Shown: positions 11,983 through 58,203, counted from the first letter of the stretch. The stretch: DNA of 64,000 nucleotides from an uncultured Phycisphaerales bacterium (GCA_963755915.1 CAVWLP010000002.1:800001-864000); one strand, 5' to 3'. A program made the numbers and translations. The notes: generated from the sequence alone by a model not told the origin.

Positions 11983-12101
11983 AGACACGCTCGGACGCCG
12001 TTAGCACATCTGCCAAAGTAGCCGCCGCAACTCAATTCCATTCGCACACCCTTGCTCCCCCGGTTATGATTCGCGCCCGATCGACCAACAACAGGGCGCT
12101 C

Positions 12102-12909
12102 ATGGAACCTCTTCAGCGAATCGTCTGCGACTGGTGCAAGGCTCAGAATCCGCCGGGGGCAACCTCGTGCGAGAAATGCGGGGCTCCGCTGAATGTAAAG
12201 AATCTCGTCAGCGATTCCGGCTGGCGCGAAGCGCCGCGGCTGCGGGATATGTCGGAATTGAAATTCGGCTCCAGCGTTTGCCAGGTGGAGGGGGAAATCG
12301 TTCCCGTCGCGGAGATCACGCTGGGCGGACGCGACGCGATTTTTTTCGAGCATCACGTGCTGCTCTGGAAAGACGACGCGGTGCGGATGGACGTGATGCC
12401 GCTGACCGGCGGGATCAAGCGGGCGCTGGCGGGGATGCCGTTTGTGGTGTCGATCGCCTCGGGGCAGGGGCGGGTGGCCTTTTCGCGATGCGGCCGGGGA
12501 GCTGGTCGTCCTGCCGCTTGAGCCGGGCACGGAAATGGACGTGCGCGAGCACGCGTTTCTGCTCTGCTCGCATTCGATCGATTATTCCTACACGCGCATC
12601 AAGGGGCTGCGGAATATTCTCTTCGGGGGGCAAGGGATGTTCATGGACCGCTTCGTCGCCAAGAGCGAGCCGGGGCTGCTGATATTGCATGGGTATGGGA
12701 ATGTGTTCGAGCGGCGGCTGGGGGCGGGGGAGACGGTGATCCTGGAGCCGGGGGCTTATTTGTATAAAGACGCCAGCGTGACGATGGAGATCGAGACGCA
12801 GAAATTGACGACCGGATTTTTCGGGGGAGTGGGGATGAACCTGGCGAAGATGACGGGGCCTGGAAGAGTCGGGATTCAATCGATGTATCACCATCATCAT
12901 ACGGATTGA
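12102..12909 (+). CDS. Zinc-ribbon plus AIM24 family protein (frameshift near 12488)
   Basis: CDWC..CEKC; GQGRVAFS, GLLILHGYG, GPGRVGIQS. Confidence 0.8.
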
Positions 12910-13010
12910 GATGTTAAACGTTGTTGGAAATTTCGGGATCTCTGCGGTCCTGACTATTCGAGATCGCCGCGTGACGACTTACAGCTCTCTTTTTTCGATG
13001 GCTGATTCGG

Positions 13011-13334
13011 CGTTCGTTTTAAATGCAAATGCAGGGGAGGCGGGAGACAACCCATCAGGCCCCACCCTCGACAAGCTCAGGGCCGGCAAGGTTTTTCTCC
13101 CGCCTCCCCCGCACCCCCTCCACCCTCTTTCCACTTCCCCTAACCGTCCAGCCCCGAAGACATAAAACTGATGCCGATGGGCGGGTCTTTGCATTTTCTT
13201 CCCGCGGACGGTTGAGGGGAAAAGGAGAGGGAGTGGGGAGGGTGCGGGAGGGGCGACGGGGAAACTCTTGGGGCCCTATGTGGTTCCCCCTCGCCCCTCC
13301 TGCATTGCATTTGAATTTGCATTTAAAACGAGCG
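13011..13334. repeat. Long imperfect inverted repeat formed by two copies of a ~130-bp dispersed repeat (MITE-like)
   Basis: Left arm 13011-13149 pairs with right arm 13206-13334; a third copy lies at about 29029-29150. Confidence 0.8.
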
Positions 13335-13405
13335 ACAAGGAATCGTGGCACGATAAATCCGTCGCGTCGCCAAGCGTGCCCTGCGAACACCAGGCCAAAG
13401 ACGTC

Positions 13406-14337
13406 ATGACTACACCAACACCGCCGAATACTTCTCGTACCGTCAAGTGTACCTGGTGCGGACACACTGGCGATGCCTCGGCAAGCACAAGCTGCCCGCG
13501 GTGCGGCGCCCGATTGATGTGCGGATGGCTGTGGATGATGCGGGGTGGACGGAGCTGCCGGCGATTCGGGATATGGCGCGGATTCAGCTTGGGCAGTCGT
13601 CTTGCCAGATCGAGGGGAAGTATGTGCCGGTGGCGGATTTCAAGTTGGCGGGCGGGGACAGCGTTTATTTCACGCATCATCTTTTGCTGTGGAAGGATGA
13701 GCAGGTGCAGATTGGGACGATGCCGCTGGCGAAGGGATGGAAGCGGCTGTTCGCGGGGCTGCCGCTGATCATGACTCAGGCGTCCGGGCCGGGACGGGTG
13801 GCGTTTTCGAAGGATGCGCCCGGGGAGATGATCGCCCTGCCGCTGGATGCGGGGCAGTCGATCGACGTGCGCGAGCATGTCTTCATGGTGGCCAGCGGGT
13901 CGGTGGCTTATGACTGGTTTCAGACCGGGATCTGGTTTACGACGCACGCGGGGAAGGATTCGGAAACGCATTATCCGATCGGGATGTTCATGGACCGATT
14001 CACGGCCGGTTCGGGAGATCGGAAGGAGCCGGGCTTGGTTTTGCTGCATGGGCATGGGAATGTGTTTGTGCGGAATCTGGGGCCGGCGCAGACGATCACG
14101 ATCAAGCCGACGGCGCTGCTGTTCAAGGATCCGACGGTTTTCATGAACCTGCACATCGAGACGCCGGGGGCGAGGTATGGGTCGTTCAGCTCCTGGCGGA
14201 TGTGGGCGAACCGGTATGTGTGGCTGCACCTTCGCGGGCCGGGACGGGTGGCGATTCAGTCGCACTTTGAGCAGATGGAGGATGGGGGGAATCAGATCAC
14301 GAGCAGTTCGCCGATGACGACGGGGTGGAGGTGGTGA
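13406..14337 (+). CDS. Second zinc-ribbon plus AIM24 family protein (frameshift near 13510)
   Basis: CTWC..CPRC; GPGRVAFS, GLVLLHGHG, GPGRVAIQS; clear paralog of 12102-12909. Confidence 0.8.
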
Positions 14338-14567
14338 CTGAACAGAACTGAACACTTCTGAACACTTTTTGGATTTCGATTAGTTAGTGCTAGCTTATCG
14401 CGATCTTGTATCGTTTGGTGTTTCCTGGGGTTGGGCGGGGGTGACGCGAAATGGGAAGGGGCGTGACGGAGAAAGTGTTCAGTTTTGTTGGGGTTTAACA
14501 AATGTGAGTGGGTGAGGTGCATTTAAAGGCGAATGGGGATTTTTCCGGTCGCCGCGGCGACCGCCTC

Positions 14568-14683
14568 CCTTCGGTCTGACTTCGATGAGCTCCCTTCGGT
14601 CTGAGCTCAGGGTCGAAGACAGTCGAATCGAGCTCAGGGTCGAAGACAACCGTCCTTCACGACTCCCTGAGCTCGTCGAAGTC
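14568..14683. repeat. Nested cluster of 23-28 nt hairpin mini-elements
   Basis: A (14568-14577 plus 14630-14647) contains B (14578-14592 plus 14621-14629), which contains an identical A (14593-14620). A further B-like copy lies at 14661-14683. Confidence 0.85.
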
Positions 14684-16203
14684 AGCCCCGCTTGTCCGAC
14701 CTGGGCTGGATTCAAAAGTTTCGCGTTCGCGAAATCGGTGACGTCCCTCGAAGGCCCGGGCTTCATCTGCCGTCCCGATTCTATCTCAATGATTAATCGT
14801 CAAGCCTGGGCGTGATCCGGCTAATGCACATCGCCTTTGGTTGCGAGGCTGATATAATCGACAACGCAGCGTTGCGAAAGACGGGCCTCCCGGCGTGACT
14901 GTTGGCGGGATCAATGTTTTCGCCGTTGTTGTGGACGCGGTCGAGGGTCGGGAATCAGCGTCAAAGGAGAAGGCGGCAGAAACCAGGATCGTTAAAACGC
15001 CTGCAGCTTACGCGCGACACTCTAATGAGGCTATTTCGGCCGAAAATATATGCCATTCGGCAATTCGCCAACTACCGACGAGCGCCTGCGATCCGGTCTC
15101 GATGCGAATCAAGCTGTCCGTGAGCAGATGTGCATTGCGTTGCTACCATTGTTGGGAAAATACACATTTGCTAGACCGCGGCGACCGCGCGGCGGTCCAG
15201 ACGGTGGTCGCGACATTGAGGCGCTTTTTGACGACCGTCTAACCGTTTGGGGCGCCGTAGGATTCCAAAACGGTGCCAATGATTCTGCGGAACAAAAGAA
15301 ATGGGTCCATAAGAAATTCGGGAACGATCTTTCCGCTGCGATTAAAAATAGTTCTGCGCTAAGGGGTTTTGTGTTCTTCACGAATGTGGATCTTACGCCT
15401 GGTGAGCAAAGTAAGCTGCGAAAATTAGCGACTACCCGAAAATTGACACACGTAGAAATTTTTGGCGCGAGCAATTGAGGCATGTATTGGATAGCACTGA
15501 GGGATTGGGCTATCGGTTGCGGTACCTTGGCCTATCGATGTCGCCTGAAGAACAGCTTCAGTTCGTTAGCCGATTTGAGCAAACGATCGGTCTGGCTCTT
15601 GATAAACATCGGGAGTTTTTCGAAGAGCGGATGAGGCGGCTTGAGTTTTTGCAGATGGCTTCGGAACCCATCCACAGTGTCTCTGCGCTATGCATTCTTA
15701 AGGATATAGTACCGGCCATTTCGTTGGGTCATTTTCGCGTATTCCTGCAGTTAAGCGCGATTCGTGATGGATATATAAGCTCGTTAAGTCTTATCGCACG
15801 CGACAGGAAGAATTTTGGACAATTGCCTAGTGAAATTAGAGCAAGGTTCAATAACCGGCTCGGAATTGAATCGTGTATTTGGTCGGAGAATGAGAAAAAC
15901 AGAATAGCTCCCGCACACGACTTCAATCTCATTCGTGGACCGACAGTTACCGATATCGATTTCGGCGTGGATGAGATTGACCAGCCGCACAGTTTTTCGT
16001 TGCGACAGCTTAATCGTCGCGCGTTCTCGCTTTATATGACGGAGCCGCTGGCCGAAAGGATCCGAGCCGTAAATATTATCGTCAACTGTCATGGGGCGCG
16101 CAAAACCGGCCAATTGAGGGCGCGCCAAAACCGGCCATTTTGAGGCACAGGAGATTGGGTTATCGACCTTGGCTTTCGGCGGTTGCCGCAAGCCAATGGT
16201 GGG

Positions 16204-17933
16204 ATGGCCAATCAACTCAAGATGGCGGAAGTACAAGCAATTTTGGCACTTGCGCAGCGGCTGGTCCAATCGGAACATCGCCCGCCAACTCGGCGTTCAC
16301 CGGGAGACCGTTGGACGCCACATCCGGTTGTCGGGCGGCGATCCTGCGGCGCCCGGATCGGATTCAAAACCGGCCAGCGCGCCCCTCGGCTCGACGGTGC
16401 TCGCCGCAGGCGGCTCGACGGTGCTCGCCGCAGGCGGCTCGACGGTGCTCGCCGCAGGCGGCTCGACGGTGCTCGCCGCAGGCGGCTCGACGGTGCTCGC
16501 CGCAGGCGGCTCGGAGAGCGCGCCCACCGGGTTATCCGGCGCGCCCATCGGGTCGGTCAGTACGGCATCGCCCTGGCGTGAGGTCATTGTTCAGAAGTTG
16601 GAAGCCGGGCTGACGGCCCAGCGGATTTATCAAGACATCTCCAGCGATCACGGCTATGCCGGCAGCTATTACAGCGTGCGCCGGTTCATCAAGAAGCTCT
16701 CGGCTGCCGCGCCGGCGCCCTTTCGCCGGATGGAATGCGAGCCGGGAGCCGAGGTGCAGGTGGACTTCGGCCGGGGTGCGCCCTGGTCGGTCCTGACGGC
16801 AAACGCAAAGCAACCTGGGTCTTCCGCATTGTGCTGAGCCACAGCCGCAAGGGGTACGCCGAGGCGGTGGAGCGGCAGACGACCGATGATTTTCTGCGTT
16901 GTCTGGAAAATGCCTTTACGCACTTCGGCGGGATGCCGTCAGCGCTGGTGATCGACAATCTTCGCGCGGCGGTGACGCGGGCGGACTGGTTCGAGGCGGA
17001 GTTGTGTCCCAAGGTCCGGTCGTTCGCCGAACATTATGGAATCGCCATTCTGCCCACCAAGCCGTACACGCCGCGGCACAAGGGGAAGATCGAGCGGGGC
17101 ATCGGCTATGTGAAGAGCAATGCTCTCAAAGGCCGGCAATTCGCCTCGCTCTCGGATCAGAACGCGCATCTGCTGACGTGGGAGAAGAGCGTGGCCGACA
17201 CGCGCATCCACGGCACGACGCGGCGGCAGGTGAAGGAAGTCTTCGAGCAGGTAGAGAAGCCGGCACTGTTGGCTCTGCCGCCGGTGCGATTCGATCTTTT
17301 CACCGAGGCGTTGCGCAGTGTTCACCGCGACGGGCACGTGGAGATCAAGGGGGCGTACTATTCGGTCCCGCCGGAGTTTTTGGGCCAGCGGGTCTGGGCG
17401 CGGTGGGACGGCGCACGGTCCGGCTGTTCGATCAGAAGATGCGTGCGATCGCTCTGCACGCGCAGCGTCCGCCGGGCAGGTTCTCGACGCAAGACGCCCA
17501 TATCCTGCCGGAGAAGATCAGCGGCATCGAGCGTGGAACGACCTGGCTTCTCCAGCGGATCGAATGCATCGGGCCGCACGCCACGCAGTGGGCGCAGTCA
17601 ATGCTTCAGCATCGCGGCATCGAAGGCGTGCGCGTGTTGATGGGGCTGCTGTCGCTGGCCAATCAGCAGCCGCGACCGGCCGTGGAACGAGCCTGCGAGA
17701 TTGCTCTGGGGCATGGCGCGTATCACCTGCGCTCCCTGCGGCAGCTCATCGAACACCAAAACGGTGCGCCGGTTCAACAACACTTCGAGTTTGTTCAGGA
17801 ACATCCAATCATCCGCGGACTGGCCGATTACGGACAGTTCGTACGCGACGCAATCACCCAAGCGGAGGCTTTGCCTGCCGCACAACCTTTACAGGCCTGC
17901 CCTGAGCAGAGCCGAAGGGAGTCCACCCCATGA
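16204..17933 (+). CDS. istA: IS21 transposase IstA (about 3 frameshifts, near 16256, 16780 and 17410)
   Basis: HTH (WSNRNIARQLGVHRETV), PGAEVQVDFG, FGGMP..LVIDN, KGKIER, YSVP. Confidence 0.9.
16387..16513 (+). repeat. Perfect 24-bp tandem repeat (5.3 copies) inside istA, encoding (GSTVLAAG)5
   Basis: CGGCTCGACGGTGCTCGCCGCAGG five times plus CGGCTCG. Confidence 0.97.
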
Positions 17934-18820
17934 GACCTTCGTTGATGCAGACGCTCAAGCAACTTCGGCTTTCAGGTCTGGCGAGCAGCCTTGAAGTTCG
18001 CCTGAGCGAGGCGGCCGGCAATCGGCTCGACCACAGTGAGTTTTTGGAACTGATCCTTCAGGATGAACTGAACGTCCGATCCAGCCGGCAGATCGGCCGG
18101 CGCGTCAAGGCGGCGATGTTCCGCGACACCAAAAACCTCGACGAGTTCGACTTCTCCTTCAACACCTCCATCAAACGCAAACAGATTCACGATCTGGCCG
18201 CCGGCCAGTTCATTCGTGACAAACGTGACGTGCTCTTGCTGGGTCCGCCCGGCGTGGGCAAATCGTTTTTGGCCCAGGCCATCGGACACCAGGCGATCAA
18301 GAGCGGCTTGGTGGTCCTGTACCGATCCATCTTCGACCTGGCCCGCGACTTTTTAGGCGACGAGGATCTGGGAGCCCAGGACAAGACGCTGGCCCGGTAT
18401 CTCAAGCCTGATCTGCTTATCATCGACGACATGGGAATGAAGCAGCTTCCGCGGCGCAGCGGCGAATGCCTGCTGGAGATCGTCATGCGCCGGCACGAGA
18501 ACCGCTCGACGATGATGACCAGCAACCGTCCACTGGAGGACTGGGCCAAGCTGATCGGCGACGTGCCGGCGGCCACGGCCATTCTGGATCGGTTCCTGCA
18601 GCACGCCACGATCATCAACATCACCGGCAAGAGCTACCGCCTTCGGCATGGGGGCCATTCGACTTCGCTCACGGCAGGCCAATCCGGGACACCGGAAAAG
18701 ACAAATCCAAAAGGACGGCGGAGTACCGCCGGCGATGAAGGGTGCTCCCCCCCGGAAGACACCGTGACAGAGCCGCCGTTGTCTTCTGATGTGGGGGTAT
18801 CCGCCGGCCAGACGGCGTGA
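17930..18820 (+). CDS. istB: IS21 helper ATPase IstB
   Basis: GPPGVGKS Walker A, LLIIDDMG, TSN, AILDR; ATGA overlap with istA. Confidence 0.95.
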   Translation: MRPSLMQTLKQLRLSGLASSLEVRLSEAAGNRLDHSEFLELILQDELNVRSSRQIGRRVKAAMFRDTKNLDEFDFSFNTSIKRKQIHDLAAGQFIRDKRDVLLLGPPGVGKSFLAQAIGHQAIKSGLVVLYRSIFDLARDFLGDEDLGAQDKTLARYLKPDLLIIDDMGMKQLPRRSGECLLEIVMRRHENRSTMMTSNRPLEDWAKLIGDVPAATAILDRFLQHATIINITGKSYRLRHGGHSTSLTAGQSGTPEKTNPKGRRSTAGDEGCSPPEDTVTEPPLSSDVGVSAGQTA

Positions 18821-19390
18821 ACGGGGACCAATAACTCAAGGAACAGTTGCGTCGGATAGAACGGATGCGGTATAGAATACGTCAGCACATTGGCCGGTTT
18901 TGAAGCGCCCCGCCCTGGCTGGTTTTGGCGCGCCCCGTGACAGTCAACAGCTACTTGATATTTAGGGCAAGCTCAGAGGAGTTTGTTTTGAACAAGAATA
19001 TCCTGTCGTTCGAGGAGCCGCCGTGGAAAGGTAAGCTAACAAAAGTCGAGAGAGCAGTTCGTTGGGTTGAATTTCAGTTTCCGCAGTCGGATTCGTTTAT
19101 TGATTTCGCTTTTCACACACCTCAGCTAATGATTTGAGATGCGGCAACGGCTTGGCTATTCGTCGAGGTAGTGGCGACATGCCGCGTTGCAATGTGGCCA
19201 TTCGTCTTTTTCGTAGTAGCGATGGCGTTGTCTCTAAGCGCCGTACGGGCGAACCCTTAAATATTACATCCCCGCTCTGTTTACCATCAATCAAACCCAG
19301 CGCAACCGCCTCCCTCACATTGACTTAAACAGAAATAAGTTATCATACACTAACCAATCGCCGAAAACGTAACATTTCGTAACATTTTGT

Positions 19391-28936: not shown

Positions 28937-29028
28937 TTGCTGGGTGAAGTCGTCTCCAATGGAGAACTCTGTTCCAGGCACATGAGGGCCGGACACTTTT
29001 TTTGAGTTCGGAGGCGAAGCGCCTAGCT

Positions 29029-29150
29029 TTTTTTAAACGCAAATTCAAATGCAATGCAGGAGGGGCGGGAAGAACCATATAGGGCCCCAAAAGTTTCTTC
29101 CCGCCCCTCCCGCACCCTCCCCACCCATCTCCTTTTCCCCTCAACCGCCC
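29029..29150 (+). repeat. Third copy of the ~130-bp dispersed repeat
   Basis: TTTTAAACGCAAATTCAAATGCAATGCAGGAGGGGCG...CCTTTTCCCCTCAACCG closely matches the reverse complement of 13206-13328. Confidence 0.85.
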
Positions 29151-58086: not shown

Positions 58087-58203
58087 CCGCCGGACTTCGG
58101 CGAGCTCAGTCGAGCCGTGTCTTCACCGGCGGGGATTTATGGTTCCCATCCAATCTTGCGCAGGTGAGGAGACGGCTCGACTGAGCTCGCCGAAGTCCGG
58201 CGG
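58087..58203. repeat. Inverted repeat with a 24-nt mini-element in each arm
   Basis: GACTTCGGCGAGCTCAGTCGAGCC at 58093-58116 and its exact reverse complement at 58174-58197. Confidence 0.9.

Follow-up and report, generated by a model that had tools for sequence, protein, structure and literature searches.

A widespread 24-nt micro-repeat in the loop of a hairpin repeat from an uncultured Phycisphaerales bacterium

One copy of a hairpin repeat in the genome of an uncultured Phycisphaerales bacterium carries exactly 24 nt more than the two other copies in the 64,000-nt stretch of DNA analysed here (the window; GCA_963755915.1 CAVWLP010000002.1:800001-864000). We show that the extra sequence represents a single copy of a non-autonomous micro-repeat with a very wide distribution, and that the hairpin loop in which they lie is a recurrent target for short units. 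The near-identical filled and empty hairpin copies provide clean natural evidence that the 24 nt enter DNA as a unit, at a defined entry site, a C-run in the loop. A widespread micro-repeat residing in a hairpin loop, together with the route and timing that we propose for it, is the best overall explanation of the data, and one that we favour with moderate confidence; the specific nuclease/single-strand route is put forward tentatively, at somewhat below an even chance.

The insert and its hairpin host

The features of the host repeat and of the insert are as follows.

13018..13150, + strand: host-repeat copy A (A-type, filled), from nhmmer, alignment and the tree
13030..13053, + strand: left hairpin arm of copy A, from an inverted pair that is 88% complementary and the fold (-50.6 kcal/mol, stem intact with the insert)
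13064..13087, + strand: inserted unit (delta unit), ACCC + TCGACAAGCTCAGGGCCGGC, or CCC...GGCA with the boundary slid by 1
13090..13113, + strand: right hairpin arm of copy A, from the inverted pair and the fold
13205..13332, - strand: host-repeat copy B (B-type, empty loop), forming a convergent pair with copy A
29027..29149, + strand: host-repeat copy C (empty loop), from nhmmer and alignment

Comparison of copy A with copies B and C places the additional 24 nt at 13064-13087. Copy A reads ...CATCAGGCCCC/ACCCTCGACAAGCTCAGGGCCGGC/AAGGTTTTT, the middle segment being the insert, with junctions GGCCCC/ACCCTCGACAAGCTCAGGGCCGGC/AAGG; copy B (13332-13205, minus strand; ...CATAGGGCCCC/AAGAGTTT) and copy C (29027-29149; ...TATAGGGCCCC/AAAAGTTT) both pass directly from GGCCCC to AA with no insert. 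The exact 24-nt insertion that the preliminary description had proposed from these two empty copies is therefore borne out, as is the lack of a target duplication, there being no direct repeat flanking the insert. The insert lies directly 3' of the loop C-run (GGCCCC^AA) in a fixed orientation, and the consensus of the unit is CCC-TTCGACARGCTCAGGGCAGGC(-T). Its boundary can slide by one base (A), giving CCCTCGACAAGCTCAGGGCCGGCA as an alternative reading; in the slid position there is again no flanking direct repeat, and the sole repetition is of a C-run beside a C-run (CCCC A CCC). The boundary uncertainty of about 1 nt suggested earlier holds for this slide, but it understates the position, as the edge is also blurred by a C-run overlap of 0 to 4 C.

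With up to 3 mismatches allowed, the 24-mer is found once in the window (100 shuffles give an expectation of 0), and no local donor was found in the window at that threshold. This bears on whether the insert is an assembly artefact or a product of local slippage, a reading we consider highly improbable. It is the case that copy A rests on one assembly, and that public contigs end at 13057/13064 and resume at 13087: four runs labelled as soil metagenomes contain parts of the stretch, and the contigs assembled from them are short and of low depth, with none bridging 13064-13087 and no joint across it; neither reads nor contigs gave evidence that the site is polymorphic. However, contig breaks at the edges of an insert are expected of a repeat branch point, the unit is present in many independent assemblies (both short-read and long-read in style, as judged by contig names), and in one genome it lies in frame within a gene, as described below.

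The host repeat is genus-specific and about 125 nt long. A head rich in A/T is followed by a long hairpin (TGCRGG... / ...CCYGCA) and then by a tail rich in C. Iterated nhmmer searches recovered 44 non-overlapping copies in the 6.6-Mb genome, and a hairpin is predicted in all 36 of those that could be cut out (-31 to -53 kcal/mol). There are several stem subfamilies, in which complementarity is kept through changes on both arms, and in copy A the insert is within the predicted loop and leaves the host stem undisturbed. Host copies often occur in convergent pairs with 100-250 nt between them. MITEs have terminal inverted repeats and a target-site duplication at clean empty sites; copies A and B form an inverted-repeat pair that is absent from orthologous sites, and the single filled/empty alignment of the host pair gave no clean edges. 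Outside the genus, a 1.5-kb query returned just two weak matches among 18 other genomes (G018 and G026), and the one in G018 corresponds to a flanking gene. No Pfam match was found for open reading frames overlapping the host repeat, and an Rfam search of window positions 12000-19000 gave only sub-threshold matches to microRNA hairpins.

The copy A/B pair is located between two tandem AIM24-family genes, such that the copy A insert is intergenic. The upstream AIM24 gene (window 12066-12909) may be split: the 12442-12909 open reading frame matches only profile positions 78-205, and it is overlapped in another frame by an open reading frame at 12066-12521, a possible frameshift or assembly indel.

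What the loops of the 44 host copies contain is listed here.

Basal loop: 24/44
This 24-nt unit: 2/44, once in copy A and twice in tandem at C2:4769610
27-29-nt type-1 unit, C(0-2)CTTCGGTCTGAGCTCAGGGTCGAAGAC: 6/44; present outside a host loop at 14.6 kb in the window
CGAGATGAGTTGC...-type insert of about 19 nt: 9/44
Local 15-nt duplication: 1/44
Too truncated for judgement: 2/44, leaving 42 assessable copies

The loop is thus a hot spot: 16 further copies have other short inserts there, units with the 5' module CTTCG..GCTCAG among them, and tandem 24-nt copies also arise at this position. We examined the direction of the change using a tree of 39 host copies, with the loop masked and five truncated rows dropped, the resolution of which is too poor for counting independent gains of the type-1 unit. 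Copy A clusters with 11 empty A-type copies in a starred clade, and the second filled copy, C2:4769610, with its two tandem units, belongs to a separate starred clade. Because 24 of the 42 assessable loops are basal and copy A lies among empty A-type copies, the 24 nt are an insertion and not a deletion from the other copies. The preliminary description had reasoned that the empty copies would be deletion products if most genomic copies were filled; with only two of 44 carrying the unit, the deletion reading fails.

The time and place of the insertion are less direct. At the orthologous locus in G001, the closest genome, there are two host copies, the left one belonging to another subfamily and being empty. 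The right copy at this locus (L002, G001:C1, the orthologue of window 12.9-13.4 kb) has a nested insert of about 63 nt with three small hairpins, which is placed in the 3' stem arm and not in the loop. In 8 of 12 other genus genomes the flanking genes are 45-90 nt apart with no host repeat between them. G001 does have filled A-type copies at other, non-orthologous loci, and these are 92-93% identical to copy A including the insert. At one of them (L022) an A-type and a B-type copy are both filled at the identical loop position, and the source genome has no composite element at the counterpart, with about 135 nt of other sequence between the flanks.

These observations favour the possibility that no insertion occurred at this locus at all, and that copy A was laid down from a filled master with the 24-mer a passive passenger in a composite of about 330 nt between the AIM24 genes. 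We regard the chances of this as evenly balanced. It bears on when the insertion took place and not on whether it did, since the A-type is otherwise empty (11 of 12 in the tree) and an insertion is still needed. Moreover, three host subfamilies carry the unit at one and the same place in the loop, namely A and C in the source genome and A and B in G001. Given the filled copies at other loci in G001, copy A probably descends from an already filled master, and the event probably predates copy A. The presence of the unit at one loop site in three subfamilies points to repeated insertion there or to transfer between loops. The suggestion that the window itself holds the evidence is accordingly correct insofar as the insertion is real, but the window shows no event in copy A itself. 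Only three close copies of the 20-mer core were found in the source genome by BLAST and Hamming scans, all in host loops, and the activity of the unit there is therefore low or past.

Distribution and targets of the unit

Within the genus, a degenerate 20-mer matched with up to 2 mismatches 105 times in 13 genomes, compared with 4 for the reversed control, and unit pairs spaced 23-25 nt apart recur. An exact 21-mer, TTCGACRRGCTCAGGGCAGGC, is present in at least 122 stretches from more than 15 phyla (contigs representing one genome per species), where by our own arithmetic about one exact match would be expected under equal base frequencies. Record titles among the matches listed include Acidobacteriota, Chloroflexota, Planctomycetota, Verrucomicrobiota, Bacteroidota, Fibrobacter, Myxococcota, Nitrospirales, Gemmatimonadales, Pseudomonadota, Chlamydiota, Peribacteria, and others, and most or nearly all of the unit-bearing records are metagenome-assembled genomes. 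A 22-mer of the unit is present in 19 viral contigs. The flanks are unrelated from instance to instance. In 112 of 142 distinct instances the unit is preceded by CCC, and T (67%), C (46%), and T (49%) are the bases that come next. Several genomes contain tandem copies, with a period of 23-25 nt. The earlier proposal that the 24-mer inserts as a unit agrees well with these data, as it is a discrete unit in many unrelated contexts. A literature search recovered no paper containing the letters of the unit or relevant peptide strings from its frames; the one text match was to a primer-like string in an unrelated paper.

In G009 (L012) the unit lies in frame, adding seven residues to a SPY-like glycosyltransferase directly after a Pro-Pro encoded by a C-run; four paralogues in the source genome do not have the seven-residue insert. 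In a Chloroflexaceae metagenome-assembled contig (L043) the unit is surrounded by a 7-nt repeat (GTGACGA), runs of which extend to either side of it, and short-period repeat arrays therefore host the unit too. With crude gene calls, the unit shows no orientation bias relative to flanking genes (10 same, 11 opposite); its frequency exceeds background between convergent genes and falls below it between divergent ones. The GC skew of the genome, considered with a view to replication-strand bias, is erratic in 100-kb bins.

The unit has a preference for hairpin loops. Among the matches listed, 24 of 122 have a perfect stem of at least 6 bp closing within 8 nt of the unit. Such stems are found in 3.1% of the swapped-flank controls (n = 2417) and in 2.5% of the shifted ones (n = 244). 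When at least 8 bp are required, the corresponding values are 12 of 122, 0.3%, and 0.8%. Duplex energies of the 40-nt flanks (-23.2 vs -21.2 kcal/mol) are uninformative in GC-rich DNA. Hairpins that are unrelated to one another often have the unit in their loops, and an Rfam motif, Acido-Lenti-1, is among them (RF01687; Weinberg et al. 2010, PMC2864571). Nine Acidobacteriota loci contain seven matches to this motif, of which five span 69-70 nt rather than 46. In three alignments of filled copies, 27-28 nt replace the 3-nt loop of the second hairpin, and one of the same loci also has an empty copy with a 3-nt loop that scores 56.2 bits, giving a filled/empty comparison independent of the one in the window. 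Here the C-run (GUCCC^) comes from the Acido-Lenti-1 stem, with 24-25 nt of added sequence. Acido-Lenti-1 resembles the window's host in being a small hairpin repeat whose loop receives the unit at a C-run, here in Acidobacteriota, but the sequences of the two are unrelated. Because its loop takes the same unit, Acido-Lenti-1 constitutes a second kind of host. Across filled hosts, between 0 and 4 extra C are present at the left joint, which looks like overlap of the unit's C-run with that of the target.

The unit is nearly unchanged over much of the bacterial tree and in viral contigs, and it lands in frame in genes. Such units create spurious open reading frames, break assemblies, and alter both hairpin repeats and Rfam motifs.

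The variable number of C at the left joint could be accounted for without a dedicated enzyme, by templated repair in which a stalled polymerase switches through C-run microhomology to a unit-bearing loop, copies it, and returns. Full units with partial or stuttered ones next to them (L025 and L121), 24-nt-period arrays whose length differs among IS copies, and units bounded by stems are all in keeping with such a process. A passive process would not, however, keep a 21-24-mer identical over more than 15 phyla, and it leaves unaccounted for the position-specific link to GIY-YIG leaders described below; we therefore think templated repair an unlikely origin for the unit.

The unit shares a core with other elements in the window, as had been noted from the sites at 14.6, 17.9, and 58.1 kb. 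The relevant sites are as follows.

14603..14648, + strand: two type-1 unit cores (GAGCTCAGGGTCGAAGACA); the type-1 unit fills the host loop in 6 other genomic copies
14667..14681, - strand: module CTTCGACGAGCTCAG, on the right arm of the inverted pair 14573-14592 / 14669-14688
17895..17919, - strand: delta-like unit GCCTGCCCTGAGCAGAGCCGAAGGG (reverse complement CCCTTCGGCTCTGCTCAGGGCAGGC), from the sequence
58095..58109, + strand: gamma-family module (CTTCGGCGAGCTCAG + TCGAGCCG), left member of an inverted pair
58181..58195, - strand: gamma-family module, right member of the inverted pair

Across the genome, 48 sites match the module CTTCGRYRRGCTCAG exactly and none matches the reversed pattern; the window sites of the module are at 14667 (-), 58095 (+), and 58181 (-), with one more at 13066 that has a single mismatch. 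These counts and the window members at those sites confirm that the shared core is real, and the 17.9-kb element is itself a delta-like unit. Most module matches belong to a 23-nt family, GGA-CTTCGGYGAGCTCAGTCGARCCG, which is flanked by the arms of hairpins or repeat arrays in at least six different hosts and is represented in the window by the 58.1-kb and 14.67-kb sites.

The delta-like unit at 17895-17919 closes the first long open reading frame of an IS21-like element, and the start codon (ATG) of the following frame comes immediately after it. This element (16085-18944) has inverted repeats at 16085-16142 / 18886-18944 and about 30 near-identical copies in the genome, whose lengths differ by steps of about 24 nt (2787 to 2931). 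It contains a 24-nt tandem array at 16363-16537, with six copies of CGGCTCGACGGTGCTCGCCGCAGG, of which one frame is free of stops; the array unit is loosely like the delta unit (TCGAC...CTC...GCAGGC).

Known repeat systems and candidate movers

REPs are among the closest described repeats. In the account by Di Nocera et al. (2013, PMC3733652), some GTAG-/CGTC-tagged REPs are intragenic and some lie within larger palindromes, and for two of three cases (Anabaena variabilis and Halothiobacillus neapolitanus) no REP-free target palindromes were found. Like the REPs covered there, the unit is a tiny intergenic repeat that is enriched between convergent and depleted between divergent genes (by crude gene calls), with some instances intragenic; it differs from them in having many empty target palindromes. 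It also lacks the 6-9-bp stem within 20-40 bp that is characteristic of REPs: in the fold of copy A it forms only a 5-bp GGCCC/GGGCC pairing that makes use of the host loop, and alone it forms at most CCCT/AGGG. It has no terminal GTAG/CGTC tag, TGTC or CGTC being present only inside its reverse strand, it shows no association with RAYT (Y1) genes, and it is near-identical over more than 15 phyla.

Rickettsia palindromic elements belong to a single genus, are palindromic, and exceed the unit in length. As summarised in PMC3733652, they are selfish repeats that can sit in frame inside a gene, and the unit behaves similarly in being in frame in a gene without breaking it (L012, G009). It differs in that it is 24 nt long, is not palindromic, and is pan-bacterial, and in that the window copy is intergenic. 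Elements of the IS200/IS605 kind use a single-stranded, hairpin-forming substrate and insert 3' of a short fixed sequence with no duplication; transposition of this type is also described in PMC11893778. The unit is similar in its lack of target duplication, its fixed orientation, and its position 3' of a short conserved target (CCC in 112/142), but it has no subterminal hairpins and shows no co-occurrence with Y1 transposase genes.

These parallels raise the question of whether a Y1 (HUH) transposase, of the RAYT or IS200/IS605 kind, moves the unit as a REP-like element by single-strand excision and insertion 3' of a short target without duplication. The fixed orientation, absence of duplication, conserved 3-nt left context, and hairpin-loop preference would all suit such an enzyme, and there are two Y1_Tnp matches in the source genome. 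The distribution of genes among 31 relatives speaks against it, as G027, which is 92% complete, combines 84 modules with no match to Y1_Tnp, and G018 has 12 Y1_Tnp matches and no modules. Moreover, the hairpin upstream of the RAYT-like gene at C3:1125094-1125801 is a different one, GGGACGCAGCTAG, and the unit has neither the 6-9-bp stem nor the terminal GTAG or CGTC tag. We conclude that Y1-driven movement is quite unlikely, Y1/RAYT being an unlikely mover and a small GIY-YIG gene a better candidate. The RAYT-like Y1 gene of the source genome (G000, C3:1124950-1125801) has a REP-like hairpin of its own (GGGGACGCAGCTAG...CTAGCTGCGTCCCC) and represents a separate repeat system.

Genes of the 23S-IVS type, encoding four-helix bundles, were also considered as partners and rejected; there are two in the genome and neither touches a module. 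One of them, a 23S-rRNA-IVS-type gene in G000 (C2:2802500-2803350; PF05635, 46 bits), lies between inverted GAAACC/GAATC-type arms. Arms of this heptamer-built type also flank another unit family, TTCGACAAGCTCAGGCCCTGAGCGAGCGGAGCGAGTCGAAGGG, elsewhere in G000.

Small GIY-YIG nuclease genes

Several observations link the module to genes for small GIY-YIG proteins. A GIY-YIG gene of 104 residues in G027 is flanked on either side by hairpins built from module pairs. The source genome has a single leader-bearing small GIY-YIG gene (C1:84953-85255), located after tRNA-Ala, and between the two are the leader TTCGACTCGCTGCGCTCGCTCATGGCAGGCC and a CCCTGAG...CGAAGGG hairpin. A module-type motif is present at 6 of 20 small GIY-YIG loci fetched from relatives, as well as at L188 and at the source genome's gene. 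Using an alignment of five proteins, we found 80 metagenomic loci encoding small GIY-YIG relatives, and a module-type motif is within 700 nt of 21 of these genes (0/80 in the reversed control), usually just before the start or just after the stop. The leader CCA/TTCGAC..GCTCATGGCAGGC occurs at 16 of the 80 loci (0 in the control), 10 of which abut the 3' end of a tRNA-Ala, tRNA-SeC, or tmRNA called by ARAGORN. A 12-mer of the unit, CTCAGGGCAGGC, is found at 4 of the 80, in every case on the strand of the gene and no more than 65 nt upstream of it, and in two of the four there are delta-like units inside the CATGG^CAGGCC loop of the leader.

The unit and the leader agree at 8 of 9 positions in CC(C/A)TTCGAC and at 12 of 13 in GCTCA(G/T)GGCAGGC, with the order of the blocks conserved. 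For the 3' block alone, the score is reached by 21 of 20000 shuffles; the resemblance of the window's own diverged copy to the leader is weak, with its score reached by 580 of 20000. No nuclease gene was found near the window's copy, and the leader-bearing gene of the source genome is on another contig. Among relatives, G028 has 41 modules and no small GIY-YIG match, and G027, with 84 modules, has one small GIY-YIG gene; the unpublished G014 was included only in the tallies of modules, Y1_Tnp, and small GIY-YIG among relatives.

The linked small GIY-YIG proteins match the UPF0213 structures PDB 1zg2 and 1ywl, and no NCBIfam family was found for three of them. With a crude motif split, a module accompanies 12 of 39 UPF0213-like proteins and none of four Ssn-like ones, and 34 proteins are unclassified. 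A literature search for GIY-YIG genes with tmRNA or tRNA genes gave nothing on point. In Dunin-Horkawicz et al. (2006, PMC1564403), 1zg2 and 1ywl are assigned to the prokaryotic Slx1-like group.

A natural comparison is with the Ssn family (cd10448), which in Chenal et al. (2025, PMC11893778) comprises small GIY-YIG, site-specific single-strand DNA nucleases, relatives of which cut single-stranded DNA beside flanking repeats. The ssn genes are flanked by oriented hairpin repeats (SRM; NTS/dRS3-type) in an IS-like layout, which the authors suggest may explain SRM expansion. The two systems have in common short oriented repeats in many copies and, at some loci for the module family and the 12-mer of the unit, a motif placed beside small single-domain GIY-YIG genes in an IS-like layout; the single-strand DNA activity of Ssn would also fit a hairpin-loop target. 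There are also differences. None of 144 units fits the published SRM search sequence, which has no matches in window 13030-13120, and the source genome has no SRM excess (30 matches vs 50 for the reversed control). The unit has no strong hairpin of its own, the unit-linked proteins look UPF0213-like and not of the Ssn type, and the unit-linked cassettes are directly after tRNA/tmRNA genes. The sections of PMC11893778 consulted describe no insertion into loops or open reading frames.

We propose a route in which the unit would be copied into transiently single-stranded DNA, such as extruded hairpin loops, at a site nicked by a small trans-acting GIY-YIG nuclease of the UPF0213 type, a relative of the Ssn nucleases. 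The putative nuclease cassettes would be those whose leader, immediately 3' of a tRNA or tmRNA gene, contains the module together with the 3' block of the unit. C-run microhomology would set the left joint, slippage may then lengthen or shorten unit arrays, and insertion into the A-type repeat would probably have occurred in a master copy before copy A was laid down. GIY-YIG nucleases only cut, and copying or ligating a 24-mer needs more. If the UPF0213-type link holds, a large family of hypothetical nucleases would gain a substrate and a role, and the programmable single-strand DNA cutter family opened by Ssn would be extended.

A bolder reading, which we find rather doubtful but worth stating, is that the 24-mer is a miniature 'solo leader' of undescribed mobile cassettes, in which UPF0213-type GIY-YIG genes would home to the 3' CCA of tRNA/tmRNA genes, with the first ~24 bases pasted alone 3' of C-runs into single-stranded loops and open reading frames in more than 15 phyla. 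If true, this would represent nuclease-driven copy-and-paste of a 24-mer, distinct from both the transposase-based REPs and the described Ssn motifs. Descriptions of such mini-insertions, and of the small nuclease genes that seemingly travel with them, are only beginning.

A second kind of small GIY-YIG gene was also observed, which starts a few bases after a tRNA-like 3' end (...GGTTCGAGTCCTGCCTGCCGAG) at L196, L198, L203, L209, and L211 (genomes G006, G004, G008, and G011). The gene is followed by partial tRNA-like copies, sometimes in tandem, and it looks like a tRNA-targeting mini-cassette of its own.
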